From Candidatus Micrarchaeota archaeon CG1_02_47_40 (GTDB taxonomy: Archaea > Micrarchaeota > Micrarchaeia > Anstonellales > CG1-02-47-40), in the NCBI GenBank assembly GCA_001871475.1, contig MNVE01000016.1, positions 133,343 to 197,342 of the forward strand: DNA of 64,000 nt. Direction: 5' to 3'. A program made the translations under genes and the position numbers. The first letter of the stretch is position 1. Each line of letters begins with the position of its first letter. The notes under the pieces were generated by a model. The model did no database searches. It saw only the letters and a program-made list of their open reading frames with translations, and had not been told where the DNA came from. Positions 35,333 to 59,536 of this stretch are shown piece after piece.

Positions 35333-38300
35333 TCTCCTGAAAACACCGGTACGTAAAGCGCTGGCTTAACTGCATTCAGCGACATGCCGGATGCGAATTC
35401 TTCGTTTTTCTTTGTTCCCCAGACGATTATGCTGTTGTCTTTCTCGTATTTGCCGGCTATAAGCTCTCCTCGGAGGGAGGCGCTCGCCAGCTGGCCTTGT
35501 TGCATAAACTTCAGTTTTGATTCTTCCTCTTTCTGCTCGCCGATTTTCCCTATGTCGGAAGGCAGGATTCCGGAATAGGTGCCAATGGTTACAGGCGGCG
35601 GCGAGCCTTCTTTGCATTCCTTATACACTGCCCTGCCTCCCTTCCATTCACCATAAACCAGCTTTCCCTCCTCGTTGGTCCTTAGGATGACCCCGCCGCT
35701 TTTCCCCTCGGTATCGGTTTTTAGAATGGTTTCTCTTGGAACAGGCGTCAGCATGCCGGCTCTTTCGCCATTCAGGTCGGTCAGATAAACCGGTTCGTCT
35801 GCCTTCTCCTGCGAAAGCACGTAGTAATGCATTTTCGTTCCTTCAGGCACGAATGAGAATCTGTCATTTGCATCCGTTCGATAGGCAAACATTGAGGAAC
35901 CGGTAAAATCTATCTCTCCCTTGACATCATGTTTTGCATCCACTCCGAACTGTTTGACATCAGACGTGGTTTTGACATTGTCGTGCCGCGGAATCTGGAC
36001 TTCGTAAACATTTACGACCTCAATTATCGCTTCCTGCTGCACGGTTTGCGCATTCGGATAAAGAGTGCGGTTGCTTGCTGTCGCAGCTATTTTCACGAAG
36101 CCCTCGTTTTCTGTTGGAATTGGCACTTGCGCAGTTCCATCAGAAGAAAGCTGTGCGGGAATGTTTTCCTTTCCCTCAATGAGATTGTATACGCCGTCTT
36201 TTGCTGCGGAGAAATAGAGGGAATATTTCGCTTCTGTTGAGCTCTTTTTCTCTTCCCCAATAGGCGCGCCGGCATCTGCCGCCAGTGAAGCTTTGAGAGA
36301 TGCGCTATAATCGCTTCCGATAAGCACTTTCCCCTGCGCCTCTATCTCCATCGCCAGCGTTTCAAGAGCCTTCTTCTCAACCGCCCCTCTCTCCGGCGCA
36401 ACCCTGCTTGAAATCTGCCGCAGGGGGTTGGTCAGCTCCTTCAGCTTCGTTATCTCCGCATCATTCAAACCCAGCTCTGCCTTCTTTCCGTCAATAAACT
36501 TCCTGTTGTCATAGCCTCCGTAGAGGATTGGCTGGAGGACGTTAAGCACGCCTTCAGCTTTGTCCCCAAATTCTTCCTTAATATCTCCGACAACCTTCAC
36601 GTGCTGTGCGTCCGTTCCGAACCTTGTTGAGCCCGTGCCTGTTATGGTTACTCCTGCAGCCAGATGCGCAAGCAGTATCGCTGATGGGATTCCGCCGGTA
36701 TTCTCAAGCCCTTTAATTATTGCTGCTTTCTTAACCTCGTCTCCGTTTGCAACTTTATCAATTGCCTGCTCCAAACTTATGTCCTTATATTCATTATACT
36801 TCGCCATCACCTTGTCCGCCATTATCTTTGTATCTGTCAGCTTGTCCCCCCTGTACCGGTTATAGACAAGCCTCTCTTCTTGGCTCCATGCATCCGTTAC
36901 CTTCACCCAAGCGCCTGCCTTGTTGGCTGCCTCCTCTTCGGAGGCGAAGGTTCCAAGCTCCTTCCCGCTGACATCGTAATAATTGCCCGTTGTCCTGTGA
37001 ACGTCCTTGTAAGTGCTCCCAAACTCCGCCGCCTTCCCTTCTCCCATTCTCCCCTGCGCCCTTGCAAGCTCTGCGCAGGCAGAGGTCTGCAGCCCCCTCA
37101 TCATATATTCCATGAAAAGAAGAGTGTTGCTAACTTTGAGTTTGCTGTCTTCCTGCAAAAGCACGTCCTTGTACTGCTCCATTATGCTCTTGTTGGCTTC
37201 GTCTGCCCTGACGAACATCTGCTTTTCTTCATCATAATGGAAGGTAAGGGCAAAGCACCAGTAGAAATAGTAGTAATCCGCACTGCGGGAAAGGTAGGCT
37301 TCCGGATTTTCAAGAATCGCCTTTATGAGAAGCTCTTCCCCTGGCTTTTGGAATATTTCGGCTATGTGCGCAGGCGCATTCATTTTATCAAAGCCGACAG
37401 CAAAAGGATAACCCGAAAGATGAATCTCCGCTGAATCTGCATAAAAACCGTATTTGTCCGCTGGAACAGCCGTGCCGGTGATTTGTGCAGGGGATTCCGC
37501 CTTTGCCGTCGCTTCTTCCTGCGGGATTTCAAGCTCTCTGCCTTTGTTGTTTGTCAGCAATAGGTAGTAAATGCCCCTTTCCTCCCTGCCGGCAGCCGAA
37601 AGCCCGTATTGTGAGAGCCTCTGCAGGGTTGCCAAGTCCGCCTGCCCCCTTCCTTGTTTTGCACCATACTGAAGCTCAACTTTGCTTCTTTTTCCGTCAA
37701 GCACCTCTTGCAGGAGCCTGCGCCCCTCATCGCTCATTTTCAAGTCATTCCCAACAAGTTCGTAGGGGGTTGCCGCAGCCTTTTGAGCTTCCTCTGCAAC
37801 AGGCGGCGTTTTTTCCAAAACAGGCGTTTGACCCGCCTGGAGTTCTGGCTCTTTCTCAAGCTTTCCATAAGCCTTTGCAAATTCCTCGCCCAGCTTGTAA
37901 TCCAGAAATGCCTGCATCCTGCTGTTTATCAGGGCGTCCTGGCTTCTGCCAATCAATGCATTGCCCTCTTTTGAAAGATGATAATTTTTCAGCGCGTCCT
38001 GGACGATTTTCCTTTCATTCTCGCTCACAGGCGCAAGAAATTTCACGTAAGCGAGCTGTATTTCGTTCATCAGCTGATTTTGTTTCTCCTGCGCAAGTCC
38101 ATTGTAGAGAGCTTTGTCGGATTCATTTAGGCGCCCCGCAAAATCCGGCTTTGCGTTCTCGGTCGCGGGAAGCCCAATCAGCGCTTTTGAAAGCTCATCA
38201 TATGCTGTTTGGTAAAACTCCCTCTTATCGTTTATCCCGAAAGCGTTTGCATAGTCGCGCACCCTGTTTGCGGCGTCTGCGTCAAGCTGCGCCCCGTCAG

Positions 38301-39204
38301 GGGCGGTTAAGTAATTGCCAAACCCCCCCGCGTATGAGTAGCTGCCAAGGATGTTTGCTACCGTGCATAGCTCTATCGAGAGATAATATGCGTTCATGCC
38401 TTGCGGAGATTTTGAGAATTCCTGCGCGGCATCCTTGAGCCGGTCAGAAAACAACAGCAGGTATCTTGCAAAAGCCGCCGCTTCCCCCCTGTTGGCTTGG
38501 GGTATGCCGTTCATTCCTTGGGCATGTGCCTGGAAATCCCGAACCGCTTGGACGCCGTGGTGGCTTTTAAGGAATTCCGCGAAAAGCTGCGAATATTCCT
38601 GCCTTCGCTCAAGAAGGGAAAGCGAAGCGGAGCCTATCTTGGGACCTTCTTCCTTTTTTTCTTGCTGTGCCGCTGCTGGCTCTGCCGGCAACTTTCTTTG
38701 TTGGGAAAGAGACTGCTCTAATTGATATCTCATTTGCTGCTCTTGAGTTAGGAAAAGATTTTTTTGGAGTTCGCTTATTTTCTTTTGCTGTCCTTCAGTT
38801 TGGGTTGGCGCCAGAAAGAGGGAGTCTGTGCTTAAGGGAGGGCGTTTTTTCCCTAATCTGACTCCGAGTGGGGTTTTTTGCAGTTCCTCCTTTTGCGGAG
38901 CCTGCGGTGTTTTTTTCTTTTCTTTTGTATCTTTTATTCCGTTAAGAATTCCGAGGAGATGAAGGGTCTGCCCTTCAATCTTTATCGCCTTGTTGAACTG
39001 CCCGTCACGGAGCTGTTCGTTGAGGTCGGATATTATCTCTTTCCCCTTCTCTTGACCTAGAAGCTCCTTGAGGATGCCCTTGGACTCTTCCGTCAGGGAA
39101 TAGCTGTTAATCTGCCACTTGTTCTTTTTCAGGATGCCCTGCTCAACAAATTCTTTGAGCTTTTGCTTGTCAAGCTCCTCTGCACGCTTAACCTTCTGCT
39201 CCAA
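35329..39204 (-). CDS. giant hypothetical protein (1291 aa), largely helical/coiled-coil
   Basis: Long uninterrupted ORF. All plus-strand ORFs in the span are short, Cys/Pro-rich and look like antisense. Confidence 0.55.
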   Translation of the reverse strand: MEQKVKRAEELDKQKLKEFVEQGILKKNKWQINSYSLTEESKGILKELLGQEKGKEIISDLNEQLRDGQFNKAIKIEGQTLHLLGILNGIKDTKEKKKTPQAPQKEELQKTPLGVRLGKKRPPLSTDSLFLAPTQTEGQQKKISELQKNLFLTQEQQMRYQLEQSLSQQRKLPAEPAAAQQEKKEEGPKIGSASLSLLERRQEYSQLFAEFLKSHHGVQAVRDFQAHAQGMNGIPQANRGEAAAFARYLLLFSDRLKDAAQEFSKSPQGMNAYYLSIELCTVANILGSYSYAGGFGNYLTAPDGAQLDADAANRVRDYANAFGINDKREFYQTAYDELSKALIGLPATENAKPDFAGRLNESDKALYNGLAQEKQNQLMNEIQLAYVKFLAPVSENERKIVQDALKNYHLSKEGNALIGRSQDALINSRMQAFLDYKLGEEFAKAYGKLEKEPELQAGQTPVLEKTPPVAEEAQKAAATPYELVGNDLKMSDEGRRLLQEVLDGKRSKVELQYGAKQGRGQADLATLQRLSQYGLSAAGREERGIYYLLLTNNKGRELEIPQEEATAKAESPAQITGTAVPADKYGFYADSAEIHLSGYPFAVGFDKMNAPAHIAEIFQKPGEELLIKAILENPEAYLSRSADYYYFYWCFALTFHYDEEKQMFVRADEANKSIMEQYKDVLLQEDSKLKVSNTLLFMEYMMRGLQTSACAELARAQGRMGEGKAAEFGSTYKDVHRTTGNYYDVSGKELGTFASEEEAANKAGAWVKVTDAWSQEERLVYNRYRGDKLTDTKIMADKVMAKYNEYKDISLEQAIDKVANGDEVKKAAIIKGLENTGGIPSAILLAHLAAGVTITGTGSTRFGTDAQHVKVVGDIKEEFGDKAEGVLNVLQPILYGGYDNRKFIDGKKAELGLNDAEITKLKELTNPLRQISSRVAPERGAVEKKALETLAMEIEAQGKVLIGSDYSASLKASLAADAGAPIGEEKKSSTEAKYSLYFSAAKDGVYNLIEGKENIPAQLSSDGTAQVPIPTENEGFVKIAATASNRTLYPNAQTVQQEAIIEVVNVYEVQIPRHDNVKTTSDVKQFGVDAKHDVKGEIDFTGSSMFAYRTDANDRFSFVPEGTKMHYYVLSQEKADEPVYLTDLNGERAGMLTPVPRETILKTDTEGKSGGVILRTNEEGKLVYGEWKGGRAVYKECKEGSPPPVTIGTYSGILPSDIGKIGEQKEEESKLKFMQQGQLASASLRGELIAGKYEKDNSIIVWGTKKNEEFASGMSLNAVKPALYVPVFSGE

Positions 39205-41425: not shown

Positions 41426-42190
41426 TTATATTTTGCCTTTTGGCAGGCGCGAATCCAAAAATGGGAAGACCTCTTCCCATGCGGGTTTGTTTTTTGTCAG
41501 CATATCAAGCGAATTCCAACTTTTCGCCTGCTGATTGATTTTTTTGCGAATATCGCCCCAGTCTGGAATTTCTTTGCATAATGCCATTTTCTGCCTGACG
41601 ATTTCAGGCTCCAAATTTGCGCCTTTTTGCAGAAGAAAGTGCAAGTCATAAACATCCCGCACCTGATTCCGCTGCCATATTGCACGGATTTTTTCTGCTG
41701 CGATTTCTTCCAATTGCATTATGGGCAGAACATAGGAAAGCATATCGGAATAAATCGGCTTTATAGCCAGTGCCTGCGCTGGCATCAGCAAATCCTTTCT
41801 TAATGAAAGGTCAAAGCGCACGGAGCATTTTGAGCGGCTGCTGCCGTCAAAGAGCACTCCTTCTATTAAGAATCTGCCCGATGCTCCGTCTCCAAACGGA
41901 TTGGGCGCCCTTGCAAGCTCGCAACGGTATCCCTGACTTTCCAGCCATTCGGCAGCTTCGTCAAAAACTTTCAGCCGGTGTTCGTTTTCCACGCGCTCGC
42001 AGAAATCAAGGTCCTCGGAAAACCGTTGCAGCCCGTATGCCTTCTGCAGAGCCGTGCCTCCCTTGAAAACAAGCGAAGTTGTTTTTGATGCGATGAAGAG
42101 AAGCAGGAGATGCTGGAAATAATCCTTCTCCTGCTGATTAAGATTGAAGCCTGTGCGCAGTTTGTATCCCTCAAGCTCTTTTCTGTCCAT
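41426..42190 (-). CDS. AbiEii/AbiGii-family nucleotidyltransferase toxin (module 1)
   Basis: LVFKGGTALQKAYGLQRFSEDLDF hallmark. Paralogous to 46704..47450. Confidence 0.75.
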   Translation of the reverse strand: MDRKELEGYKLRTGFNLNQQEKDYFQHLLLLFIASKTTSLVFKGGTALQKAYGLQRFSEDLDFCERVENEHRLKVFDEAAEWLESQGYRCELARAPNPFGDGASGRFLIEGVLFDGSSRSKCSVRFDLSLRKDLLMPAQALAIKPIYSDMLSYVLPIMQLEEIAAEKIRAIWQRNQVRDVYDLHFLLQKGANLEPEIVRQKMALCKEIPDWGDIRKKINQQAKSWNSLDMLTKNKPAWEEVFPFLDSRLPKGKI

Positions 42191-42824
42191 TAAACCGCCT
42201 CCTAAAGCGAATGAATCTTCTCAATGCGCTTTTATTTTGGTAAAGCCTGACAAAATTCTCAACTGCCCTTAAATTAAACCTGCTCGCTCTCCTGAAATAG
42301 GCTGCCGCCGATTCTGTTTCCTCATCACCAGCCAAATCAGGTCTTGCTATGCAGTCTGCAATCGCTTTCTCCCTTCCTGCAACGAAATATTTTTTACTGC
42401 CTGCTTTTGCGGGATGGAACCCTCCGAATGCCCGCGCAGGAGTGCGATGAAAGGTTATTTCATAATTTGCAAATTTTACAGCTCTTGCGGATGCGGCGGC
42501 GGCAACTTGCACCTGCACGGGTATCTGCGTGCCCGCCCCATGAAGGATGAGCGCGCTCAAAAAAGAGATATATGAAGGTCTGATAATCGCAGTTGCGACA
42601 GCTTCTGCCGATTCGCCCGCAAGCGCGTAAAGCCCGTTTTTTATTCTGCAAAGAACCCCGGAAGAGCAAAGGCGGCTTGCAAGCACATACGGCGAATTCG
42701 TGCCTGCAATAAGCCCAAGCATTTTTGTTGAGTATACTGGATTGTCAAGCTCGCGGAGCTTCTCCACCAATTCAAATCTATTCATGGATGTGCTTTGCAG
42801 GGAAAAGGATATAAATATATGCAT
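42171..42824 (-). CDS. AbiEi-family antitoxin/transcriptional regulator (module 1)
   Basis: Lies upstream of AbiEii and overlaps it by 20 nt. Shares HP(S/T)Y(I/V)SFLSA...HG similarity with 45784..46506. Confidence 0.65.
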   Translation of the reverse strand: MHIFISFSLQSTSMNRFELVEKLRELDNPVYSTKMLGLIAGTNSPYVLASRLCSSGVLCRIKNGLYALAGESAEAVATAIIRPSYISFLSALILHGAGTQIPVQVQVAAAASARAVKFANYEITFHRTPARAFGGFHPAKAGSKKYFVAGREKAIADCIARPDLAGDEETESAAAYFRRASRFNLRAVENFVRLYQNKSALRRFIRFRRRFNGQKRA

Positions 42825-42870
42825 TCTAACTTCAATTTCTTAACAAAAATGTTAAGAAACTGCAAACAAA

Positions 42871-45439: not shown

Positions 45440-45780
45440 TTTCTATTGCATTTTGTCAAAAAAAGTTTCAAAATGCACTACATTTTGGCGAAAATATTTT
45501 CAAAATGCAAATTTTAAGGATTGACCGCCAGTGCCTGTTTTCTTGCAGAACGATTTTTGGCGAATATTGTTCCCGCGCAGAACAATTTCGTGAGGTGTGT
45601 TTGTTCGGAGTTTGAGCTGAAATTCACTCTTTTTGGTCGGATTTCCGAACAGAAATATGCGTTTTTGGCTCTCTCCTTATTTACGAGGATATTTTTCTTT
45701 GCTTTTTTGTTCGAAGTTTGAGCTGGAATTGAGTGTTTTTGGTCGGATTTCCGAACAAAACCGAGGATGAATTCTTCTTT
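45440..45780. repeat. complex direct-repeat block A (copy of block at 47566..47800)
   Basis: Box ttggcgaaaa..tttcaaaatgc is followed by two tandem ~75-bp units gttcggagtttgagctg(g)aatt...ttttgg.cggatttccgaac...gtttttggctctctccttatttacgagg. Each unit has a ttcgga/tccgaa inverted pair. Confidence 0.7.
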
Positions 45781-45783
45781 TAA

Positions 45784-46506
45784 ATGAGCGTTGAAGTTAT
45801 CAAAAATGATAACTTTAAATACTTTTTGGAAGAATATATTATCATGAATGATACGGAATGGCTCAAGAAACATCCCACAATAAGGCTGGCGGATATAGAG
45901 AGAAGATGCAAAAGCCATAACTACGCCAAGCTCTTTGCGCACAGAATGCAAAAAAAAGGGATTTTGCATAAAGCAGCAAGAGGAATTTATTCCGCTTCTG
46001 AAGAAGTATTTGCAGTCGCATCAAACATTCATTATCCGAGCTATGTTTCTTTTTTGTCCGCTTCCTATTTATACGGCTTTACCGAAACGATACCCCGCAT
46101 AGTTTCCATTGCAGCGGCAAAAAAATACAGCAAAATAGAGTTCAAAGGGTATACGATAGAATTCGTTCGGATGAAGGAGCTCTGGGGTTATAAAAACGAG
46201 AACGGGGTGTTTTTGGCAGAGCCTGAAAAACTGCTGATAGACGCATTCCTAAAGCCAAAAAGCATGGGGAATTTTGAGGAAATCGAAAGGCTCTTTGGAG
46301 GCTCTTTGGAGATAAATGCTGAAAAACTCAAAACCTACCTAAAAAAAACCAATTCAGACAGAGTATACAGGTGCGTCGGGTATATGCTGGAAAAGCACAG
46401 AAAAATAGACATATCGCGCCTTATGCGCATTGATAGGAACTATTATGAGCTGAATCCGTTTGAAAGCGGCGCGGGTATAAACAGAAAATGGAGGCTTAAG
46501 GTATGA
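45784..46506 (+). CDS. AbiEi-family antitoxin/regulator (module 2)
   Basis: HYPSYVSFLSASYLYGFTE...LID similarity to 42171..42824. The likely start is an internal Met near 45844. Confidence 0.65.
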   Translation: MSVEVIKNDNFKYFLEEYIIMNDTEWLKKHPTIRLADIERRCKSHNYAKLFAHRMQKKGILHKAARGIYSASEEVFAVASNIHYPSYVSFLSASYLYGFTETIPRIVSIAAAKKYSKIEFKGYTIEFVRMKELWGYKNENGVFLAEPEKLLIDAFLKPKSMGNFEEIERLFGGSLEINAEKLKTYLKKTNSDRVYRCVGYMLEKHRKIDISRLMRIDRNYYELNPFESGAGINRKWRLKV

Positions 46507-46520: not shown

Positions 46521-46700
46521 ATTGGAGACGATGGATATGGTTGTATTGTTTAGTCTCCAAAACATGACGCTGCAGTGTCATGCAGATTTTTCAGTTGACG
46601 CCAGGGGCATCAAGACTTGCTCAACAGAGCAAGCAGAAATTGACCGGAGGTTTGACGGCGAAGCCGTCAAATTTTGACACCTCCGGTGTCAAAGGTCAAT
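46521..46700. repeat. second hairpin array between AbiEi-2 and AbiEii-2
   Basis: ttggagac-N24-gtctccaa, catgacgctgcagtgtcatg, ttgacgccaggggcatcaa, cttgctcaacagagcaag, ttgacggcgaagccgtcaa nested within ccggaggt...acctccgg, ttgacacctccggtgtcaa. Confidence 0.7.
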
Positions 46701-46703
46701 AAG

Positions 46704-47450
46704 ATGAACACAAAAGAGCTTGGGGAGTATGCCCGTCTGCGGGGCTTGAACTTAGGGCAGGCTGAAAAGGATTATTACCAAAATATACTCCTTTTTCTGC
46801 TCTACGGCAGTGTCTCAAAAGAACTTGTCTTCAAGGGAGGAACAGCCCTCTCAAAATGTTATGGATTAAACAGATTTTCAGAGGATCTTGATTTTACAGT
46901 TCTGGAGGAAAGGGATTTCATTATTATTCTGGAAAAGGGGCTTGGGGAATTTGGCATTCTTCACATGGTAAAGGAGGAGAAAACGGCTGCCCAAAGCAAA
47001 AAATACAGGCTTAAGGTGCAGGGCCCTCTTTACAGAGGGCTTGAGAGAACGCTCTGCTCAATAACGCTTGATTTCAGCTTTAGGGAGAAGGTGCTTTCCC
47101 CTCCGCTTATCAAAACCATCGGGCATCATATGGATATAATACCGGTTTTTGACGTTTATGTTATGAGCCAGAACGAGATATTGGCGGAGAAGATAAGGGC
47201 GCTTCTTGCAAGAAAATCCGCAAGGGATTTGTATGACATTGTTTTTTTATTAAGAAACGGGGCGGTTGTTGATGAGAAAATGATAAGGCAGAAGCTTGCG
47301 CTGTGCGGAATGGAATTTGACAGAAAAACATTCATTTCAAGATGCGGTTTGCTTGAGGGGATATGGGAAAGCGAGCTTAAATCGCTTGTGAAGAATGTCC
47401 CTTCCTTTAAGGAGTATGTTGGAATGGTGAAGGGGAAGGTTGAGAGATAG
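46704..47450 (+). CDS. AbiEii-family nucleotidyltransferase toxin (module 2)
   Basis: MNTKELGEYARLRGLNLGQAEKDYYQ...LVFKGGTALSKCYGLNRFSEDLDF aligns along its length with 41426..42190 (MDRKELEGYKLRTGFNLNQQEKDYFQ...). The ORF-track TTG start at 46674 is rejected. Confidence 0.75.
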   Translation: MNTKELGEYARLRGLNLGQAEKDYYQNILLFLLYGSVSKELVFKGGTALSKCYGLNRFSEDLDFTVLEERDFIIILEKGLGEFGILHMVKEEKTAAQSKKYRLKVQGPLYRGLERTLCSITLDFSFREKVLSPPLIKTIGHHMDIIPVFDVYVMSQNEILAEKIRALLARKSARDLYDIVFLLRNGAVVDEKMIRQKLALCGMEFDRKTFISRCGLLEGIWESELKSLVKNVPSFKEYVGMVKGKVER

Positions 47451-47565
47451 AGAAGAGGGGGATTGAGGGAGAGAGGCGGGTAAGGGGTATCGTTGGGACA
47501 GTAGTGAAGGAGGGAATGAAAGAATAGAGATTGATGAGAAGAATTGGCGCAGGGAGATAAGGATT

Positions 47566-47800
47566 TGGCGAAAAAAGTTTCAAAATGCGCATTTTTTCAG
47601 GATTTGATCGGAGTTTGAGCCAATTTTAAGTGTTTTTGGGGGGGATTTCCGAACGAAAATAGGCGTTTTTGGCTCTCTCCTTATTTACGAGGGGAGTTTT
47701 CTTTGCTTTTTTGTTCGGAGTTTGAGCTGGAATTAGAGGGGATTTTGGACGGAAGTCCGAACGAATTATGCTGGAGGGGCTTATTTTGCCGAATTTTAGG
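47566..47800. repeat. complex direct-repeat block B (copy of block at 45440..45780)
   Basis: tttggcgaaaaaagtttcaaaatgcgc, then two units containing tcggagtttgagc...gatttccgaacgaaaataggcgtttttggctctctccttatttacgagg and ttttctttgcttttttgttcggagtttgagctggaatt. Confidence 0.7.
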
Positions 47801-47896: not shown

Positions 47897-50800
47897 TCAG
47901 AAGGAACGGGTGATTTTCCCATATATGAAGTAATCGTTCTTCTTTGTCGGTTCGTATATCCATTCATCAACAACACCAAATCCGAAGTAGCCTGGCTTTC
48001 CGACGATGCTGCCGATTACTCCAAATTCGCCCTGGGCGGTTGCAGAGCGGATTTGCTCGTATTGGGAAAGACCGAGTCCAAGGCATGCCCTAAACTGTCC
48101 AAAGTATTTTTCACCTTTGAAGCCGCCAGTATAAAGCGGCGCACCTTCATCTTCGCCGTATCCTGCCTGCTTCGTGAAATTGAGCATGTAATTGTAAGTC
48201 CTGCCTGCGTGGGTAAAAGTTACCTTCCAAAGGTCTGAATCCACATAAACCCCATTAACCATAATCGGACCCCAGGCAACCCCCCCCTCTGTGGCAATGC
48301 CTCCTTTGCCTATTGGGGAGTTCGGCGGGAGTTTTTCCGCAAAAAGAAGCAGTTTGAAGTTGTCAAGCTTCCAGATGGCGCCCACACCAAGGTTTGTATT
48401 TTTCAGTTTTTCATCCTCCCCAAGGTCAAAACTGGCGACTACAGAGAAATTATCTTTCAAATCAATCATCGTTGAAACGATGTTCCTTTTCTTTCCGCCT
48501 TCAACTCCGGGTGTTTGGGAAAATGAGAGCATCATGCCCGGCGTTCCATCCTCGCTCCTTATTTTCATTGTGAAATCGCGTATGCTGCCTCCTGCAAGCT
48601 GATTGAGAAGGGAGTAATTATCAGCCCCCATGAATGATGATTTCATCGCTTCAGAAACTGTGTAGAGCGCGGCTTTCTTTTCTACCTCAGTTGAGGCAGG
48701 AGTGTTTAAAACTTCCTGATATGCGCCATATGCACTCTTCAGGGCAGTTAAGTCAAGGTTTTGGGGCACGAAAAGCGAGTATGCGCTGTTCTGCGACGGG
48801 TCTGACCAATTTGCCATAACTTCCATGTCTGCAGTTCCAAGCTTGGTTTGGAGATTTGTGGTGTAGCGGTTGTAGCCCTCTTCGTACTTTCTGTATTGAC
48901 TGCGCATTGTCGTTGCGAGATATTTTCCTTCAAATCCTCCAACGAAAGAGTCAAGCTTTTGCCCTTCGCCCGTCTGGGTTTCATCAACGCGCCATGACCC
49001 AAATCCATATCCTCTTGCAAGAAGCCCTGTCTCTCCTTTCTGGCGGGTGTATTCGCCGCTTTGATATCCTATATTCGCCCCTCCAAAGTGCGAATTGCCA
49101 TTATGATCGCTTAGCGCGATTGTAGCGGCAAGTATGCGCTCGTTTTCAAACTCCTTTCTCGCGGAAGTTGATGCTATTCCTATCTGGTTTTGCGCGCCCT
49201 GCGCGAGTTCGCCCTCAACCTTGCTTATGGTTTCCATGTCGCCATAATTTTGCTGAAAAATGTTTCCGGTGCCTGTGCCGGTAAGGTTGCTAAGCTTGTT
49301 CTCGTTTAGAGTATACCAGCCTATTTTCACTTCGTATTTTTCGCCTGATGCCTGCACGGCTTCGGCGCGCTCCCTTTGAACGGTTTGCGCATTGATTCCG
49401 GCAAACTTGATGCTTTTCCCAAGCGCATCGCTTCCAAGCGCAGCATAGAAGCCAGTATGAGTGCCTGCAACATTCTCCTGCCCTAAAGGAACATCATAAA
49501 TTCTCTGCTGGATGCCTACGCTTCCCTGAAACGCGCCTTCATCATATGAGCCAATGCGGGAGAATATGTTTCCTACCTTTTCAATGGAATCCTGTGATGT
49601 AGTATAAAGCGCTTTTCTGACATCGTCTGTCAAAATGAGTTCAACCCAAGTCGTGCCTGCCATGCGCCAATAGACGTGCAAATCATCCATGTAATTGCTT
49701 GTTTCGCTTGTTTGGGCTTGCGAGCCGGTGCTGTGCCAGTCATAATGCATAAGCAGGGAGGATTGGGCATACGGCGAGCTGTTGAGCTGTGCCACAACAT
49801 TTTCGTTGACTGCCTTGTATGACTGGGATTCCTGCTGTGTTGCCTGTAAATTGTATTGAAGATTTCTGATGAGCGCGCCGCCTATGAGCGGCAGTTTGCT
49901 ATTTTGTATTTCAGCGTATGCCTGCTGATTTGTTGAATCTGTGCCTGCATTTTCAGAGGTGGTTGAGATTACGCCTCCGCTTGCGTTTGAGAGGGGGTTT
50001 ATGGAGTTCCAAACTCCTTCTCCAGTTATTCCTTTGTGTTGTGCATTATCAAACGTGTTGCCTCCTGCAAGCGTGCCGTCTAATGAACCGACTCCGCCCA
50101 TTCTCGGAAAACCCCTTCCAAGCGCCCCCTCAAGAGACTCGTCAAGGGCGCGCTGTGCGAACGTTATGTCTGTGTAGTACTCCCTTTCAAGCCCTCTTAA
50201 GAAGAGCCTTGCAAATCCATCCCGCGTCCATTGCCTGTTCTTGAAAGAGTAAAGCTCCCTGCGGCTCTCCTCAAGCTGATAGGGCATCGAGCTTTGGAAT
50301 GTCTGCCCGATTGTGGTTATTGGGTATGGCTCGTCAAATGGTCCGAATAAATGCCTTCCGAATTGGTCGCGCAAAAACCCGAAAACGTTGTCATAAGGCG
50401 AAATCAGATATTCATTAATTCCGGTTATTGCCGATGGCTTTATGTAAATAATTCCCTTGTCGCTGACACCTATCTGTTCATTGGTGAAATTCGCGACAAA
50501 ATTATCCGTATTCAGGTCGTATTGCGCCATGCTTGAGAAAAAGGCGCCAAGCTTTGCTTTCTTTTCCTCTTGGGTGCCCGGATATCCGTAAACGGTCATT
50601 GCATACTCTGCGGTTGAATTGAGTATTTGCAGCCTTGTGGAGTAATCAACCACTGAAATGTCCGGGAATATTTTTTTAAGCAATTTCTCCTGCCCCATAA
50701 GCTCGTGCATTACGGCATTTGATTTTCCCTTATTGGCAGAAAATAGGTCGCGCAGGGGATTTGCACCGTAAATTGAGTTTGAGATTTCATTTATGCCCGT

Positions 50801-52210
50801 ATCTATAGAGAAGGCCGCATTTGCCATGCTGACACTTCCTGTTGCATTCTGTTCGGGATTTTGGAGTATGCCCCAAATCTGGTTCTGGTTTTGGCTAAGC
50901 CAGTCAAGCCCCTGCGTTATGTGCGTAATGCCGCTCATGTCTGCGCCGCCAACATTCATGCCTGCAAGAAGCTGTTGTTTGTAATCAAGAAGCCTGCCAA
51001 GGATTGGGATGAGCTGCATATTAAAAACGTTTTGCGAAAGGCCGTTTGCAGAGCCAAAAAGATTATTCAGATTTGTATATTCCGTCCTGAAAGCCGCTAG
51101 ATATTGCACTGCAGATTCATAGGCAGGCGTCGCATTCAGGTTTAACTGGGAGATTGGCAGTTCTTTGTTGTTTATCAGGCTTATTCCCTTTAGGATTGTT
51201 TCCATATTGTATACTGAACGCCTGTAAAGATACGCCGCTTCCGGTCCGTTTAAGTTGAATACTTGGTCGGGCAGGACGTTCACTGCTGCAAAGCCGGAAA
51301 CCAGCTCATCTGCCGCCGAGGAATTTTTCTGCCTTGCCCTTTCAAGGTTTCCCTTTATCGCGCCTTCTTCAAGAAGTGCGTTTGCAAGTGATTTATACTG
51401 CTCAAGAATGCCTGCATTCTTTCTGATGCCTTGCGTGTTTATGCCGTGTGCAGTTAGGGTTTTGTCGTAGGCGGACATGTCCGGACCATAAACTGCCTTT
51501 ATTGCAAATTCTGCTGCGGCAGGGATTATCAGAAATTTTCCAGCAGCATCCTTCTTTTCAACATCGTCCAGTTTTCCAATCATTTTTTTTATTGCTTCCT
51601 CGTCGCCCATATAATTGAAAATGTATTCCCTTGTGGCATAATCAACTGCGTTTATAAGTGAAACGCATTTTGCGGCATCCCTTGAGAATGCCTGCAGGGA
51701 TTGCCCAATAATTATATTGCTGTTTTTGAGAAGCTCCAATTCCGTTGCGTCATCCCTAATATTGCTGTGTTTGTCGTCCCATTGCTTGCAGAGGGAGTCA
51801 AAACTCTGCAAGTCGTCCCAGTTTGAATAGTTGATTATCTGCATTGTCAGGTTGAAAAAATCTTTCTTAAGCCCAAGCGTATGAAGCGTCTGGTCAAATT
51901 CATTTTTACCTTCTGTTGGGGTGTATTGTGTGTCGTTGTAGACTTTTTTTGGAGTTGAAACGAGAATATCGCTTTTTGGCAGTTGTGTTGGTGGTTCCCC
52001 GGCTTTCTGTAGAAGATTTTCAAGATTTCGCATATATGCAAGCGCCTTGGCTTGCTCATTTGATTTGTATGCACTTTGAAGATTTCTCAATTCCGCCAAA
52101 AGAGAGGGATATCGCTCGGTGCCTTTAAAGGCATCTACCCTCGTTTGAAACTCCTCTATTTGCCTTGGTTCGATGGAAAGTTGCAGGCTGCCCATAATTA
52201 ACACTCTCAC
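47897..52210 (-). CDS. giant hypothetical protein (1437 aa), Gly/aromatic-rich beta-like C-terminus ending in Phe
   Basis: Last gene of a 4-gene operon. The C-terminal ...GYFGFGVVDEWIYEPTKKNDYFIYGKITRSF has alternating aromatic/hydrophobic residues. Confidence 0.6.
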   Translation of the reverse strand: MRVLIMGSLQLSIEPRQIEEFQTRVDAFKGTERYPSLLAELRNLQSAYKSNEQAKALAYMRNLENLLQKAGEPPTQLPKSDILVSTPKKVYNDTQYTPTEGKNEFDQTLHTLGLKKDFFNLTMQIINYSNWDDLQSFDSLCKQWDDKHSNIRDDATELELLKNSNIIIGQSLQAFSRDAAKCVSLINAVDYATREYIFNYMGDEEAIKKMIGKLDDVEKKDAAGKFLIIPAAAEFAIKAVYGPDMSAYDKTLTAHGINTQGIRKNAGILEQYKSLANALLEEGAIKGNLERARQKNSSAADELVSGFAAVNVLPDQVFNLNGPEAAYLYRRSVYNMETILKGISLINNKELPISQLNLNATPAYESAVQYLAAFRTEYTNLNNLFGSANGLSQNVFNMQLIPILGRLLDYKQQLLAGMNVGGADMSGITHITQGLDWLSQNQNQIWGILQNPEQNATGSVSMANAAFSIDTGINEISNSIYGANPLRDLFSANKGKSNAVMHELMGQEKLLKKIFPDISVVDYSTRLQILNSTAEYAMTVYGYPGTQEEKKAKLGAFFSSMAQYDLNTDNFVANFTNEQIGVSDKGIIYIKPSAITGINEYLISPYDNVFGFLRDQFGRHLFGPFDEPYPITTIGQTFQSSMPYQLEESRRELYSFKNRQWTRDGFARLFLRGLEREYYTDITFAQRALDESLEGALGRGFPRMGGVGSLDGTLAGGNTFDNAQHKGITGEGVWNSINPLSNASGGVISTTSENAGTDSTNQQAYAEIQNSKLPLIGGALIRNLQYNLQATQQESQSYKAVNENVVAQLNSSPYAQSSLLMHYDWHSTGSQAQTSETSNYMDDLHVYWRMAGTTWVELILTDDVRKALYTTSQDSIEKVGNIFSRIGSYDEGAFQGSVGIQQRIYDVPLGQENVAGTHTGFYAALGSDALGKSIKFAGINAQTVQRERAEAVQASGEKYEVKIGWYTLNENKLSNLTGTGTGNIFQQNYGDMETISKVEGELAQGAQNQIGIASTSARKEFENERILAATIALSDHNGNSHFGGANIGYQSGEYTRQKGETGLLARGYGFGSWRVDETQTGEGQKLDSFVGGFEGKYLATTMRSQYRKYEEGYNRYTTNLQTKLGTADMEVMANWSDPSQNSAYSLFVPQNLDLTALKSAYGAYQEVLNTPASTEVEKKAALYTVSEAMKSSFMGADNYSLLNQLAGGSIRDFTMKIRSEDGTPGMMLSFSQTPGVEGGKKRNIVSTMIDLKDNFSVVASFDLGEDEKLKNTNLGVGAIWKLDNFKLLLFAEKLPPNSPIGKGGIATEGGVAWGPIMVNGVYVDSDLWKVTFTHAGRTYNYMLNFTKQAGYGEDEGAPLYTGGFKGEKYFGQFRACLGLGLSQYEQIRSATAQGEFGVIGSIVGKPGYFGFGVVDEWIYEPTKKNDYFIYGKITRSF

Positions 52211-54324
52211 TTAAGCGTTTGGAGATAGAGTATCCTGTTGCTATCGGTTGTAAAGGTATTGAGATCGGTTGCGATTTGAATGAACTCATTTTCGTTGCGA
52301 CTTAATCCGCTAAGTTTAGTTTCAAGCTCGGGAGATATTGAAAGATTCAGTGTGTTCTTCACGAAACCAACCAAATCCGCGCTGCTTTTCACTTCCTCCG
52401 CCTTAATCGGCGCTTGGGCTGGCGTTTCCTCCACCTGCGCTTTTACTGACACTGATTCAGGCAACTCTTCTACCTCCGAATTTTCTTCAGCACTTGTGCC
52501 CGACACGCTAACCTCAAACTCCAGCAGTCCGGCGTCTTTGTAGGCTTCGCTGGCTTTCACTATCTTGTAGGCTTCTTTCAGGCGTTCAGATGAAGACTCA
52601 AGTTCAATAAGTTCGACATACTTGCTTTTAATTGCCTCAAAAAATTCCTTATTTTCAAGCATATGCCGAATCATCTCGGGATTTATCTTCTGGTATTCTT
52701 CACTGCCCATATTGCAGGCTGTAAGGAAATTCTTTAGAGTTTCGGCGTTTTTATCTATCTCTTCTTTCTTCCCTGACTGGAAGTTCTCTTTCAGGTTCCC
52801 TGCACGGTCATTTGCAATTTGACTGATAACATTCCTTAAAGTCACTTTATTGCCGTCTGCGTTCTTGAAAAGAGTGTCGTCTATGTTTCCGGCGCTTATC
52901 CTGCCTGCCTCCTCTTTTGCGTTTGCAAGAAGCTTCTCTTTGTTTTTTGCGTCCTGGCTGATGAGGCTTTTCAGAGTTGTCTCAAGGGTTGCATCAGTTA
53001 TTTCGTATTTGCCGGTTCCCTTCCCATTTTTCTTTATTTCCTTGGCAATTCCGGCAAACTCGGCGCACGCAAGATAGAGTTTCTTATCGTCTTTGTTCGT
53101 CACGTTCGCAAGCCCTGCAAGGTATGCCGACTGCGCCTCGGTTGAGGGCTCAACGAAGAGGGTGTTGTTAGTGCGGTAAGTAATGAGGATTTGGAGAAGC
53201 TCGGAGGAAGCAAATGAGCGCTCGGGTGCGCTGTTGAGAGCGGAGACTGTTGTTTTTCTTCCATTGATGTATAGAGCCGGCTCCTGCAAGCTGATTGCGC
53301 TTGCGATTGCGTTTTTTGCTTGGCTGACGATGGCGTTGATGGTGGAGATGATTGCTTCCCCATTTGGTATGGGTGCTTCGGATTGCACTTCAGTGACATC
53401 AGGCTTTTTCTCAACCGGCTCGTAGTTTCCCTTTATTCCGGTTAATATGTCTGTCCACTTGTCTTTCCATTTCTGCGTTGTCGCAAGAGAGTTCAGGAGC
53501 TCGCTTTGAACGCCCCCATCCTTGTCAAACATCTTCTCAAGCATCGCATCTGCGGTTTCCGCCTTCAGCCCGTCAGCTATTGTTTTTGCCTTCGGATATC
53601 CCTTTGCGGTGAAAAGCGCGAAAAGCTCCCTGAAAAGAAGGGTTTGTTTTTCATCAAGCAGAGTGTTTGCATCCTTTTTTTGCAGATAGCCGACAAACTC
53701 GCTTCTCTTGTGCTTTGTCCTGTCTATAAGCCCGTTCTCAAACATCCATCTTAAAGCAAAGAACGCGCCTTCCTTCATCATCTTCTGCTTCAGGTCGGCT
53801 CCGGTTATGTCCTTGCCCTCTGCCGAGTAGGTGCTGCTGTCTTTTATCTTTTCTTCGGTCGCGGTGTTGAAGAAAGGAATATTGCCAAGAAGGACTTTTT
53901 TGTCGGCTTCTGAAATCAGCTTATTGTATATTGGGCTGAAAACGCCGTCTATGTGAGTGTATGAGAGCGTTTTGGCGGCTGCCGGTGTTGCCGCGTTTTC
54001 AGTTGCAGTAATTCTGTTCAAATCCGCAATGAAATCGTCTACTTTAGAATAATTCTTGTCAGTGCCAGTAAATCCGAAATGGGAAAGATACATGCGCTTC
54101 AAAGAGTTGCCGGAAGTGCGGCAGATATTCCAAGTTGAGTCTATTTTTTGAGTTTTAATGTAATCTAAAGCTTCAACTGCTGTTTCAGCTGCGTTTGTTT
54201 TATTCGGTGGGTTTTCTTTGAGGCAAGTTATTATGCTGTTGCGAAATTTTGCGAGTTCCTTCTCCTGCTCTTGGGAAACCACAGTTTTTTTCAACTGCAA
54301 CTCAAATAAAAACACCATGTTCAT
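52207..54324 (-). CDS. hypothetical helical Lys/Glu-rich protein (705 aa)
   Basis: 4-nt overlap with the downstream giant gene. No motif recognised. Confidence 0.55.
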   Translation of the reverse strand: MNMVFLFELQLKKTVVSQEQEKELAKFRNSIITCLKENPPNKTNAAETAVEALDYIKTQKIDSTWNICRTSGNSLKRMYLSHFGFTGTDKNYSKVDDFIADLNRITATENAATPAAAKTLSYTHIDGVFSPIYNKLISEADKKVLLGNIPFFNTATEEKIKDSSTYSAEGKDITGADLKQKMMKEGAFFALRWMFENGLIDRTKHKRSEFVGYLQKKDANTLLDEKQTLLFRELFALFTAKGYPKAKTIADGLKAETADAMLEKMFDKDGGVQSELLNSLATTQKWKDKWTDILTGIKGNYEPVEKKPDVTEVQSEAPIPNGEAIISTINAIVSQAKNAIASAISLQEPALYINGRKTTVSALNSAPERSFASSELLQILITYRTNNTLFVEPSTEAQSAYLAGLANVTNKDDKKLYLACAEFAGIAKEIKKNGKGTGKYEITDATLETTLKSLISQDAKNKEKLLANAKEEAGRISAGNIDDTLFKNADGNKVTLRNVISQIANDRAGNLKENFQSGKKEEIDKNAETLKNFLTACNMGSEEYQKINPEMIRHMLENKEFFEAIKSKYVELIELESSSERLKEAYKIVKASEAYKDAGLLEFEVSVSGTSAEENSEVEELPESVSVKAQVEETPAQAPIKAEEVKSSADLVGFVKNTLNLSISPELETKLSGLSRNENEFIQIATDLNTFTTDSNRILYLQTLK

Positions 54325-54337
54325 CAGCCTCCTTAAA

Positions 54338-56410
54338 TCATTTTAAAGTTTCTTCTATCGCGGCGTCAAAATCATCTTTATTCTTTATGGAATTTTTCTT
54401 CTTTTTTAACTCCTCTGCCAAAGCTTCTCTTAAGTCGTTTATGCTGTTGTTGGGGTGCCTTTTTTGCAGTGTGCCGTCAAACTCGCCTTTTTCCACGTCT
54501 GAAAGGGCGGCATCAAAGCTGAAGGTCGTGTCCTGCGCTGCCGGTTGCAGGAATTTTTTCAGCTCCTCTCCAAGAATTTTTTGTTTTGTGGAGTCGGTTA
54601 TCTCTTCAAACCGTAAATTCAAGCTGTCTTTTAGGGCTTGCATCTTCGTGCTGTCGCCTCCGAGTATTTCGTATGGGGTGGTAATAATTTTCACCGTGCC
54701 CCCAGGGGCTTTTTCCCAGTTGATAGGTGTATTTCCTATTTGAACTATCCAGTCTTTGGTGACAGATTTTTTGGCTTCGTTTAGTGCTTCATCCTGTTTT
54801 TTCTGCTTTTCCAGCTGCTGCTTCGTTTGTTCTTCCTGCGCTTTTTGTGCCGCTTCGTTCGCTTCGTGCTTTTGGGCGGATTTTTGCGCAGTAGAATTAA
54901 AGTAGAATTTTCTTGGGAGGACCGATTCTGCGGCAAAGGCGGGTTGGCGCGCCCAAAGTTTCGCGTCTGCCAGCAATGGCTTTGCCACACGAATGGCCCC
55001 TTCACCGATAACGCCTCCAAGGTAAGCAGGTGAGTATGCCGCCCCTATCCCGATATTTGCCAGCTTTGTTTGCCCCGCCATATGCTCCACCCTATGTTCA
55101 TCTACCCACTTAAGTGGAGAAACTCCTTTTGGTTTCCATTTTCTAAGCCGGACTCCCAAGCCCTTGATTTTCTTAGTGCTGGTTGCTATTGCTTTTCCAG
55201 CTCCCTCGTTGAGGAGTTGTGATGCTGTTTTTTCTCCGATTTCACTGCCTGCGTTTCCAATTACATTTTTTCCTGCGCCCATGGCGATGTCATACTCGTC
55301 AACAACCTTCAGCGATACTCCATTTTCCCCGAATTCCAGAGATAATTTAGCATTCGGATTGCGGCGCAATTTGCGAGAAACCTCCAAAGCAACGGTTTCC
55401 ATATCCTTTACGAAAGAATTGTAAACCTCCCTAAGCTCGGGATTACTGAAAAGAGTTTTTCCTTTTCCCTCTAAAAGAACCGTCGCGCCTCCGGCAGTTA
55501 CTTCCCTTCCTGTTTTGGTGGAAACGTCAATGGCTGTCTTTTCTACTGCTTGGTTGAACTCATCCACATGCTGTTTTAGGAACTTCGCAGTTGCGTCCTC
55601 AATTTCCTCCCGAGTTATGGCTCCTCCTTTGTTTTTTATCAGCGCAAACAAATCTTCTGCAGTCGCATTCTTGACGTAATCAATAGGATTTGTGTTCTTT
55701 AGGATGTATTTAGGTGCGTTTAGCGCAAAATCGCTGTAAGCTTGGGAGAGCGCCCTCCTTGCCGCTTGGGAGGTTATGGCATCCGCCATCATCTTCTCGG
55801 CTTGTTTGGCGCTTAACTCACCTGCGGCTTTCACGGCTTCGGCTTCCGTTGCCGTTTGGATAAGCTTCGTTTCAGCAACGCTTTTTGTGACTGGGTTGCC
55901 GGCTGCCAGTTTTACTGCGAGATCGGCACTTTTTATAGCATTACTCTCACTTCTTTCCAAAACTGCGCGCTTGACAAGCTCCTTGCTTGGCGGCATAAAT
56001 CCCTCCTCCAGTGCCACCTGCGCAAGCGGTTTTACTGCTCGTTCTGCGACTTGCCTTCCAAGTTTTTTTTCTGCTTCTTTGGCGGTGTCTTCAATCATCT
56101 TCTTGGCTACCTTTACAGCTATTGGGCGCAGCGCCATTGCCTCCGCCTTGAGCATAATCCCGACAGGAGGGTATAACAGTGCGGCATCACCTACAAGAGA
56201 GATTGCAAAAGCACTTGCCATGATTCCTGCCGCCCCCCACTGTCCGCGTGCGGTGTAACATATTCCGTCTTTGAATGCTATGGCTGTGCCGGTTATGGGG
56301 AGCCACTCAAGCGCCTTCTCGGTCTGTGTTTTCCCCTTTTCAGGGTTTATCCAACTTCCAGTAATCAGCTTATCCCAATTACTCGGCTTTTCTTGTTGAG
56401 TTTGAGTCAT
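54338..56410 (-). CDS. hypothetical protein (690 aa) with N-terminal hydrophobic hairpin and Ala/Lys/Glu-rich helical body
   Basis: GAAGIMASAFAISLVGDAALLYPPVGIM hydrophobic segment near the N-terminus. Start coupled to the stop of the upstream 161-aa gene (shared nt 56410). Confidence 0.55.
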   Translation of the reverse strand: MTQTQQEKPSNWDKLITGSWINPEKGKTQTEKALEWLPITGTAIAFKDGICYTARGQWGAAGIMASAFAISLVGDAALLYPPVGIMLKAEAMALRPIAVKVAKKMIEDTAKEAEKKLGRQVAERAVKPLAQVALEEGFMPPSKELVKRAVLERSESNAIKSADLAVKLAAGNPVTKSVAETKLIQTATEAEAVKAAGELSAKQAEKMMADAITSQAARRALSQAYSDFALNAPKYILKNTNPIDYVKNATAEDLFALIKNKGGAITREEIEDATAKFLKQHVDEFNQAVEKTAIDVSTKTGREVTAGGATVLLEGKGKTLFSNPELREVYNSFVKDMETVALEVSRKLRRNPNAKLSLEFGENGVSLKVVDEYDIAMGAGKNVIGNAGSEIGEKTASQLLNEGAGKAIATSTKKIKGLGVRLRKWKPKGVSPLKWVDEHRVEHMAGQTKLANIGIGAAYSPAYLGGVIGEGAIRVAKPLLADAKLWARQPAFAAESVLPRKFYFNSTAQKSAQKHEANEAAQKAQEEQTKQQLEKQKKQDEALNEAKKSVTKDWIVQIGNTPINWEKAPGGTVKIITTPYEILGGDSTKMQALKDSLNLRFEEITDSTKQKILGEELKKFLQPAAQDTTFSFDAALSDVEKGEFDGTLQKRHPNNSINDLREALAEELKKKKNSIKNKDDFDAAIEETLK

Positions 56411-56895
56411 TATTCCACCCCTCTAGCATAGCTTACAAAACTCTCTGCAGCTTCTTTTCCCCTATGTTCATTAAGCCAATTTTGAATGTGTGTAAAATTT
56501 GCCTTGTATTCTTTATTTCCGTCTATTTCCATTTTGAATTTCGGGGATTTTTCATACATGGCATAAACAAGGACAGAATAAACTGTGGCTACGTTTGCTG
56601 ATTCAGCAAGAAGCGCATTTTTCTCCTCCTCGCTCTTTGCAGATGAATAGCGGTTTTGGAGGTCGCGCACATAATTTATTGCAAGCGCATTTGAGAACCA
56701 ATCAGAATACTTCATTATTTTCAGTATTTCTTCCGGGTTTGTTATTTCCTTTGACTTATCAAACAGTATTTTCTTCCCCTCAAGAGTAACAGCTTCAATG
56801 AACTGCGCCTTCTTATCCAATTTCAGCTTCGGGACTATTCCCTTTAATGAAACTTTCACCATGTTTTTTTGAGGTTTATCCGCCAAGTAAATCAC
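56410..56895 (-). CDS. hypothetical protein (161 aa), first gene of giant-protein operon
   Basis: A GAGGTGATT SD precedes ATG 56895, with a TATA-like box ~35 nt further upstream. Confidence 0.5.
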   Translation of the reverse strand: MIYLADKPQKNMVKVSLKGIVPKLKLDKKAQFIEAVTLEGKKILFDKSKEITNPEEILKIMKYSDWFSNALAINYVRDLQNRYSSAKSEEEKNALLAESANVATVYSVLVYAMYEKSPKFKMEIDGNKEYKANFTHIQNWLNEHRGKEAAESFVSYARGVE

Positions 56896-56927
56896 CTCTC
56901 GTTTGTATGAAGAAAATAGGATTATTC

Positions 56928-56940
56928 TTATTTATAAATC
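56928..56940 (-). promoter_or_regulatory. TATA-box-like element (TTTATAAATA in gene orientation) for the 56895..47897 operon
   Basis: Minus-sense sequence ggaTTTATAAATAag lies ~35-45 nt upstream of ATG 56895. Confidence 0.4.
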
Positions 56941-56969
56941 CATATGTAGTATTTTGGGGGAGATAATGG

Positions 56970-59362: not shown

Positions 59363-59430
59363 GGGAAAAACCCTTTGAGGTAAGGTATTCGCGTTTTTGT
59401 TTAAATAGTTAAGCGGGGGGGAATTTTGCG

Positions 59431-59536
59431 GAGGTTTAGTTAACATTTTTGTGAAAATTGTTAAGTCAGGTTAACAGTTTTTTGGATTTTGTTAAGTTGA
59501 GTTAATAGTTTTTGGGATTTTGTTAAGTTAAAGCGC
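59431..59536. repeat. ~3.5 tandem copies of a ~31-bp unit (TTTTGTTAAGTT..GTTAAyAGTTTTT)
   Basis: gaggtttagttaacatttttgt / gaaaattgttaagtcaggttaacagttttttg / gattttgttaagttgagttaatagtttttg / ggattttgttaagttaaagcgc. Confidence 0.55.

Follow-up and report, generated by a model that had tools for sequence, protein, structure and literature searches.

What do four closely packed genes encode when none of their products matches a domain model and the last is a giant protein whose C-terminus recalls a membrane β-barrel? The question is raised by a 64,000-nucleotide (nt) stretch of contig MNVE01000016.1 (the window, to whose positions the coordinates below refer unless another locus is named) from “Candidatus Micrarchaeota archaeon CG1_02_47_40,” a member of the DPANN archaea sampled in groundwater at Crystal Geyser. 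Its minus strand carries genes A, B, C, and D, which the original prediction, made from the nucleotide sequence and its open reading frames (ORFs), took for an operon of ORFans and a candidate cell surface, attachment, or toxin delivery apparatus, possibly of mobile-element origin. The giant protein D joins a helical N-terminal half to an amphipathic, β-rich C-terminal third and is restricted to Micrarchaeota. The C-terminal third is predicted, with moderate confidence, to fold like a porin-type barrel, and our best guess, a tentative one, is that the products of A to D form an envelope or host interface channel complex.

The giant protein and its family

No protein of the cluster matched Pfam, NCBIfam, PHROGs, or PADLOC above noise, in agreement with the lack of recognizable domains noted at the outset. 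Searches of B, C, and D against PDB sequences found nothing, with single sequences or with the family profile; “Chelona toxin” and RNR entries of the PDB, which appeared at an E value of ∼0.13, were rejected as noise. A word-indexed search of 5.8 billion proteins returned the query alone for D, for protein B (B690), and for the family profile of D, but such an index misses relatives that an exhaustive HMMER scan found. That scan, run with D residues 238 to 1437 against 1.84 billion cluster representatives, recovered six distant relatives with 25 to 37% identity: P0007 (1450 amino acids [aa]; E value of 2e-111; 33% identity), P0008 (1599 aa), P0009 (1289 aa), P0010 (1373 aa), and two fragments. 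D is therefore taxonomically restricted and not the ORFan it was first taken for; the label holds for B690, which had no relative beyond its own 90%-identity cluster in the word-filtered search of 5.8 billion proteins.

The D family amounts to seven 50%-identity clusters among the 1.84 billion representatives, and its named members are deposited as “Candidatus Micrarchaeia archaeon,” “Candidatus Micrarchaeota archaeon,” or “uncultured archaeon.” Relatives from at least four other lineages align with D over >1,100 residues, essentially its whole length, at 25 to 33% identity, which indicates long-term purifying selection. A scan of GTDB species representatives recovered one contig, already among the relatives, and a JGI metagenome scan for relatives recovered nothing. 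The regions of D are as follows.

50111-52210 (−): residues 1-700, all-α, predicted successive helical bundles, with motifs EFAIxAxYG and IYPDxS
49187-50110 (−): residues 701-1008, a Gly/Ser/Thr/Asn-rich linker and then a low-confidence β region
47900-49186 (−): residues 1009-1437, 23 long antiparallel strands plus a helical insert, a predicted porin-like β-barrel or β-meander
48596-48787 (−): residues 1142-1205, the helical insert between strand blocks, with conserved LxSAxxxY...MNxIFxxAD
47900-47932 (−): residues 1427-1437, YFIYGKITRSF, the last strand

Composition and propensity profiles describe residues 1 to 700 as helix-prone and the sequence after them as Gly/Asn/Ser/Thr/Tyr-rich and strand-prone. 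Conserved islands occur along the whole alignment (EFAIxAxYG, NPxxD, IYPDxS, LHVYWRxxGTTWVE..DDVRK, LLRGYGFxSW, FTHAG, and the last strand), and the most conserved motif of the family, LHVYWRMAGTTWVE..DDVRK at residues 845 to 867, lies in the β region. The alternating C-terminal segment with its terminal Phe, which had first drawn attention to D, proved to be a property of the family. In the 23 strands of residues 1009 to 1437, apolar residues make up 66% of one face and 35% of the other, and charged residues 10% and 24%, respectively; the family as a whole keeps this asymmetry, and the β periodicity can be read directly from the sequences. The terminal Phe is kept in five of the six complete C-termini. 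The C-terminus was examined for a β-signal, in which hydrophobic residues at positions −3, −5, −7, and −9 precede a terminal aromatic one; in the family, three members have Arg, Gln, or Lys at position −3, and Gly or Leu occupies position −7.

AlphaFold2, given residues 780 to 1437 and the six-sequence alignment, returned a model with a mean predicted local distance difference test (pLDDT) score of 63.6 and a predicted template modeling (pTM) score of 0.50. The model has ∼32 antiparallel strands of 8 to 16 residues each and the helical insert at residues 1142 to 1205; in the last ∼230 residues, the pLDDT of 10-residue blocks is mostly 72 to 87, with three blocks at 58 to 70. Its structural matches include ScrY (13.6), MtrB (13.4, with 306 residues aligned), and OprC (12.2), and further ones are general porins, TonB-dependent receptors, FimD, VDAC, Tom40, BamA, TamA, LptD, NalP, and the Deinococcus SlpA. 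Every top structural match of the C-terminal model is a membrane barrel, and LptD was matched as a barrel.

An amphipathic β-meander of this kind is compatible with an open-groove fold as well as with a barrel. D could then be a bridge-like lipid transfer protein, with the meander forming an open hydrophobic groove that carries host lipids to the symbiont. The giant size, the lack of a signal peptide, and the many consecutive amphipathic antiparallel strands, apolar on one face, would all suit such a protein, and the dependence of Nanoarchaeum on host lipids is documented (PMC6349945). We nevertheless consider lipid transfer improbable: Pfam gave no match to the Chorein_N, VPS13, AsmA, or TamB families, no TamB-like or Lpt-bridge-like open groove is among the structural matches listed, and half of D is helical, unlike proteins built as a repeating β-groove.

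Genes, partners, and chromosomal neighborhood

The products of A to D (OIO20768, OIO20767, OIO20766, and OIO20765 at NCBI) are deposited as hypothetical proteins. The cluster comprises the following features.

56929-56938 (−): TATA-like box TTTATAAATA, ∼40 nt upstream of the gene A start, the probable cluster promoter
56892-56898 (−): Shine-Dalgarno-like GAGGTGA, 5 nt before TTG 56886
56410-56895 (−): gene A, 161 aa from GTG; NCBI OIO20768.1
54338-56410 (−): gene B, 690 aa; NCBI OIO20767.1
56147-56302 (−): B690 residues 37-88, hydrophobic and Gly/Ala-rich (LPITGTAIAF ... AGIMASAFAISLVGDAALLYPPVGIMLKA), a putative hairpin
52207-54324 (−): gene C, 703 to 705 aa; NCBI OIO20766.1
47897-52210 (−): gene D, the giant protein, 1432 to 1437 aa, 159 kDa; NCBI OIO20765.1

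All four codirectional ORFs lie where they had been placed, and the TATA-like box and GAGGTGA before the first gene can both be read in the sequence. The TTTATAAATA box is the single match in the 64-kb window (0.17 expected; at least one match in 17 of 100 shuffles) and lies inside the 75-nt spacer that follows a DJ-1/PfpI gene, a position from which the cluster probably has its own promoter. The tight coupling was borne out as well. Genes A and B overlap by 1 nt at 56410 (TAATG), B and C are separated by 13 to 19 nt that include AAGGAGG, and C and D either share GTGA (52207-52210) or are 12 nt apart, depending on the start chosen. The start of gene A is most likely TTG 56886, giving 158 aa, the version called in Logan/ENA/JGI (the NCBI version has 150 aa), and that of gene C is most likely ATG 54318, giving 703 aa. 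Gene D may start at GTG 52210 (1437 aa) or at ATG 52195 (1432 aa, as at NCBI); the 1378-aa Logan version is unlikely and the long form is favored because relatives align from the very N-terminus. As read from the TATA box, the Shine-Dalgarno sequences, and the overlapping or nearly abutting genes, the cluster appears as one transcription unit on a Micrarchaeota (DPANN) chromosome. A scan for σ70 promoters and intrinsic terminators gave counts not above those in shuffles, and such a scan is not applicable to archaea.

No frameshift or internal stop occurs in the four ORFs. The codon log-likelihood of genes A to D is above zero in the annotated frame alone, at 0.20 to 0.41 bits per codon (0.35 to 0.49 for housekeeping genes of the window), and GC content at the three codon positions is like that of the same housekeeping genes. 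Database sequence look-ups found identical copies of the four-gene cluster in independent samples. These are four real genes of native composition, and the signs of pseudogenes that had been looked for (broken frames and low coding potential) were not found. That the ORFs are decaying or nonfunctional, or that AlphaFold hallucinated a fold on Gly/Tyr/Phe-rich sequence, is highly improbable. The alignment is indeed shallow, the pLDDT is moderate, and homologues of A, B, and C are lacking; against this stand uninterrupted frames of up to 1437 codons with a frame-specific coding signal, the conservation of D in other lineages, the identical copies, and a β periodicity that the sequences themselves show.

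Proteins A, B, and C are Lys/Glu/Ala-rich and helix-prone according to their composition and propensity profiles. Protein A is basic (pI 9.0) and Lys/Glu-rich, protein C is acidic (pI 5.4) and Lys/Glu/Thr/Asn-rich, and neither has a hydrophobic segment. B690 (pI 9.1; 13.6% A, 11.4% K, and 8.8% E) is probably helical. Its residues 37 to 88 are the sole membrane-compatible segment of the cluster, with a short apolar stretch (residues 37 to 47) ahead of a hydrophobic one (residues 61 to 87; Kyte-Doolittle window maximum of 1.8 at residues 61 to 79). Composition and hydropathy therefore agree with the N-terminal hydrophobic segment and Ala/Lys/Glu-rich body that had been described for B690, and the hairpin is a plausible topology. 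Searches for A and C covered curated libraries and the contigs of the relatives, together with PDB sequences for C. No paralogy was detected by blastp or hhalign among A to D or between them and the products of another cluster of the window (X1291, X514, and X979, described below).

A short likeness between A and the giant family was also observed. Residues 67 to 82 of A161 (56650-56697), “SNALAINYVRDLQNRY,” resemble “NRANAIDYVRDLQHYT” at residues 92 to 107 of P0007 (L002 3663-3710). The shared motif AI[ND]YVRDLQ has E values of 0.08 to 0.25 in very small databases and lacks significance; it may be a hint that gene A arose when an N-terminal part of the giant protein split off.

In the window and in all four relatives with genomic context, the giant gene is the last of a closely spaced, same-strand cluster without Pfam matches. 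The clusters of the relatives encode proteins of 552 and 1450 aa; 1365, 1506, and 1599 aa; 601, 91, and 1289 aa; and 303, 496, and 1373 aa, with gaps mostly of 10 to 43 nt and one of 80 nt (locus L003). The partners of the relatives and proteins A to C are alike in composition only: blastp, tblastn, and hhalign detected no homology of those partners with A161, B690, or C705 or with each other, nor homologues of A to C elsewhere on the contigs. Such a lack of homology between lineages is expected for rapidly evolving interface proteins. The 552-aa partner (locus L002) has a weak hydrophobic stretch at residues 79 to 103, a position comparable to that in B690.

Three of the relatives are syntenic, with YdjM upstream and a double zinc ribbon protein, DUF35/thiolase/HMG-CoA synthase, dCTP deaminase, and aIF5B downstream, which indicates an archaeal housekeeping context rather than a mobile element. 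The window cluster departs from this synteny. The double zinc ribbon (DZR) protein, of ∼110 aa, follows the giant gene in all three syntenic relatives, is 62% identical between two relatives, and lies at L003 6442-6771 and L004 8513-8866; the window has no copy.

The four genes had been suspected to be possibly of mobile-element origin. On a wider reading, they would be cargo of a mobile element, virus, or defense or toxin island, would have arrived with the neighboring AbiE toxin-antitoxin modules, and would encode virion, tail, or toxin delivery proteins. The cluster does adjoin a repeat-flanked AbiEi/AbiEii pair and interrupt the synteny of the three relatives, and its proteins belong to no known family. 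Such an origin is now very unlikely, given that codon usage and codon-position GC match those of housekeeping genes, that the cluster borders are free of integrase, transposase, and tRNA genes, and that homologues of D occupy conserved chromosomal neighborhoods. Viral sources were equally barren: two IMG/VR scans found no relatives, tblastn found no match in 50,697 phage records, and PHROGs and PADLOC were without matches, as above. Foldseek comparison with viral structures (BFVD) gave query-normalized TM-scores of ≤0.2 throughout, with compact alignments only to porins and to short uncharacterized proteins on phage contigs. Toxin delivery has likewise gained no specific support, with no toxin, Rhs, or PADLOC match, and no search assigned the proteins to an S-layer or phage tail family.

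Possible location and function of the giant protein and its partners

In the envelope or host interface complex that we tentatively favor, the N-terminal ∼700 residues of D would form a rod of α-helical bundles, followed by a low-complexity linker, and the C-terminal 430 to 620 residues would form an antiparallel β-meander or porin-like barrel with one apolar face and a terminal Phe. D would be coproduced with one to three fast-evolving, Lys/Glu-rich helical partners, and the proteins may build a channel or attachment complex that is associated with the envelope where symbiont and host meet. B690 could be the membrane anchor through its hydrophobic segment. The barrel, apolar outside and polar inside, would act as a conduit in a lipid or S-layer environment, either in the archaeon's own envelope or in the host membrane, and the helical rod and variable partners might supply spacing and host specificity, a role that would explain their divergence beyond recognition between lineages. 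We infer a cell surface location for the cluster products; export of D would be nonclassical, as it has neither a Sec nor a Tat signal.

Several observations weigh against this proposal. First, and most seriously, export signals are completely absent. No hydrophobic stretch occurs in the first 60 residues of D or of P0007 to P0010 (Kyte-Doolittle), and the D ORF cannot be extended upstream; A to D and the giant-family members checked have no Sec-type signal, and the latter have no transmembrane helix. Second, D (pI 5.2, with few Cys residues) is not enriched in N-glycosylation sequons, which occur at ∼1 per 100 residues. Third, there is no conserved partner, and a fixed “apparatus” is not supported by conservation. 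Fourth, the closure of the barrel and its number of strands rest on prediction, of moderate confidence, from only six sequences; to the overall pLDDT and pTM values given above may be added a pLDDT of 52.5 for the N-terminal half. Deletions in the family are ∼5 times commoner in predicted loops than in strands, but a circular-shift test of indel placement gave 0.19, which is not significant, and the alignment was also model input. Finally, cultivated Micrarchaeota have one membrane and an S-layer and no outer membrane (PMC8975820; bioRxiv 10.1101/2021.04.28.441871; PMC11329633); the two-membrane reading of cells of the archaeal Richmond Mine acidophilic nanoorganisms (ARMAN) (PMC4243693) is older and has since been revised.

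An S-layer protein, or a structural protein associated with the S-layer, is a reading that comes close to being refuted. A mass of 159 kDa, a pI of 5.2, and few Cys residues fit the generic criteria for such proteins (bioRxiv 10.1101/2021.04.28.441871), but D matched no archaeal S-layer model, including those of the TIGR01564/TIGR01567 type (NCBIfam, 0 families for D), and has no signal peptide. In addition, the protein identified as forming the S-layer of the phylum has homologues in 38 of 49 genomes (bioRxiv 10.1101/2021.04.28.441871), compared with the seven clusters of D.

The missing export signals would be explained if the cluster encoded a cytoplasmic structural or scaffold complex, i.e., a lineage-specific assembly such as a cytoskeleton-like rod or internal tube in which the β region is a soluble oligomerization barrel or sheet. 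We regard this as doubtful but a serious possibility. The N-terminal model of D resembles the helical-bundle strings of talin and α-catenin rods, although its confidence is low, and the partners are Lys/Glu-rich and helical. The low Cys content, the unenriched sequons, and the conserved chromosomal context among housekeeping genes are also compatible with a scaffold, and internal tubular structures have reportedly been seen in ARMAN cells. What a scaffold leaves unexplained is the strongly apolar face conserved over >20 strands, an uncommon feature in soluble single-layer sheets. The top structural matches are, moreover, all membrane barrels, and the extremely fast divergence of the partners is more typical of interface proteins than of a core cytoskeleton.

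Large single-chain transmembrane β-barrels are considered characteristic of the outer membranes of bacteria and of the organelles that derive from these, and no archaeal family of such barrels was described in the literature searched. It is a bold and rather unlikely proposition that the D family is the first single-chain, porin-type membrane β-barrel native to Archaea, a Sec-less barrel carried on a long helical rod, inserted in the symbiont envelope or the host membrane, and used with its fast-evolving partners as a conduit for tapping the host. If the barrel prediction for D holds, barrel biogenesis without the β-barrel assembly machinery (BAM) becomes a new question, and D offers a specific molecule to consider for the as yet unexplained channels and contacts that link DPANN symbionts with their hosts. 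The conduits of DPANN archaea to their hosts are an acknowledged unknown (bioRxiv 10.1101/2023.10.27.564410; PMC11329633). Even if the barrel of D is soluble or an open groove, the family represents a conserved, Micrarchaeota-specific module of variable partners and a giant protein. DPANN genomes are rich in large hypothetical proteins, and the operon alone would therefore be unsurprising to a specialist; what would surprise one is a conserved porin-like barrel that a monoderm archaeon makes with no export signal.

Other features of the window were recorded alongside. A second tightly coupled cluster without Pfam matches lies at 30852-39204 (−), directly downstream of phosphoglycerate kinase, with start/stop overlaps at 35329-35332 and 33788-33791. 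It encodes a Lys/Glu-rich protein of 1291 aa without a signal, a protein of 514 aa with a β-rich C-terminus, and a protein of 979 aa with a signal peptide and four CARDB domains; it is similar in style to A to D, has no detectable homology to them, and may be a second surface or interface module. Direct repeats at 45452-45760 and 47564-47734 (101 nt at 90% identity plus units of 32 to 55 nt) flank the AbiEi (45784-46506) and AbiEii (46674-47450) genes, between the A to D cluster and a tRNA-splicing endonuclease gene, and a second AbiEi/AbiEii pair is found at 41426-42824 (−). At 59387-59531, four units of ∼31 nt, three of them in tandem (GTTAAC..TTTT..TTTGTTAAG), overlap and lie upstream of the start region of ABCE1 (RLI), and one arm is complementary to 42826-42855. 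A Cdc48/VCP-type AAA+ ATPase at 7150-10692 (+) has a CDC48_N domain, two AAA domains, and a LAGLIDADG_3 match at residues 786 to 854, which points to an intein that carries a homing endonuclease and interrupts the second ATPase domain.

Comparison with known systems

The combination of features predicted for the D family (a porin-like barrel, at moderate confidence, an extension of ∼1,000 residues, and no export signal) is not described together, nor in Archaea, in the literature searched. Individual features are shared with several systems. VPS13, ATG2, TamB, and AsmA are, like D, giant proteins (signal-less in eukaryotes) with a long amphipathic β-meander and an apolar face; D matches none of their families, half of it is α-helical, and its top structural matches are closed barrels. 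SLP_Mh, the Micrarchaeota S-layer protein, comes from the same phylum and is likewise large, acidic, and Cys-poor, but S-layer domains and a signal or transmembrane segment at its N-terminus set it apart, as does its wide occurrence among Micrarchaeota (bioRxiv 10.1101/2021.04.28.441871); D has neither signal nor S-layer domains and is rare.

Type V autotransporters have a similar outline, with a passenger followed by a C-terminal barrel that ends in Phe. Their barrel has 12 strands, their passenger is usually β-helical, and they carry a Sec signal; D has no signal, >20 predicted strands, a helical N-terminal part, and no match to PF03797 (Pfam, E value of ≤1). The closest targeting logic is that of mitochondrial VDAC, Tom40, and Sam50, which have no N-terminal signal and hold their targeting information in the last strand. 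These are, however, eukaryotic 19-strand barrels that need TOM and SAM, they have no sequence similarity to D, and their PoxGxxHyxHy motif is unmatched by the last strand of the D family as read from the alignment.

Compared with the classical barrels that it resembles in predicted structure (maltoporin, ScrY, MtrB, OprC, and other TonB-dependent transporters), D has only 5 to 8% sequence identity. It has no Pfam match to porins or TonB-dependent receptors and no Sec signal, its predicted barrel is fused to an N-terminal extension of 1,000 residues, and neither an outer membrane nor BAM is known from its organism. With no signal peptide, SLH domain, autotransporter domain, or sequence similarity, D is best described as predicted to look like a porin and not as an outer membrane protein.

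The same restraint applies to the tether porins OmpM of diderm Firmicutes and SlpA of Deinococcus. D has no SLH domain (Pfam), no signal peptide, and no sequence similarity to them; its helical part is predicted, with low confidence, to form bundles rather than a trimeric coiled coil; and its host is an archaeon without peptidoglycan whose cultivated relatives have no outer membrane. These tether porins nonetheless offer the closest architecture to that proposed for D, a helical stalk and then a large barrel.

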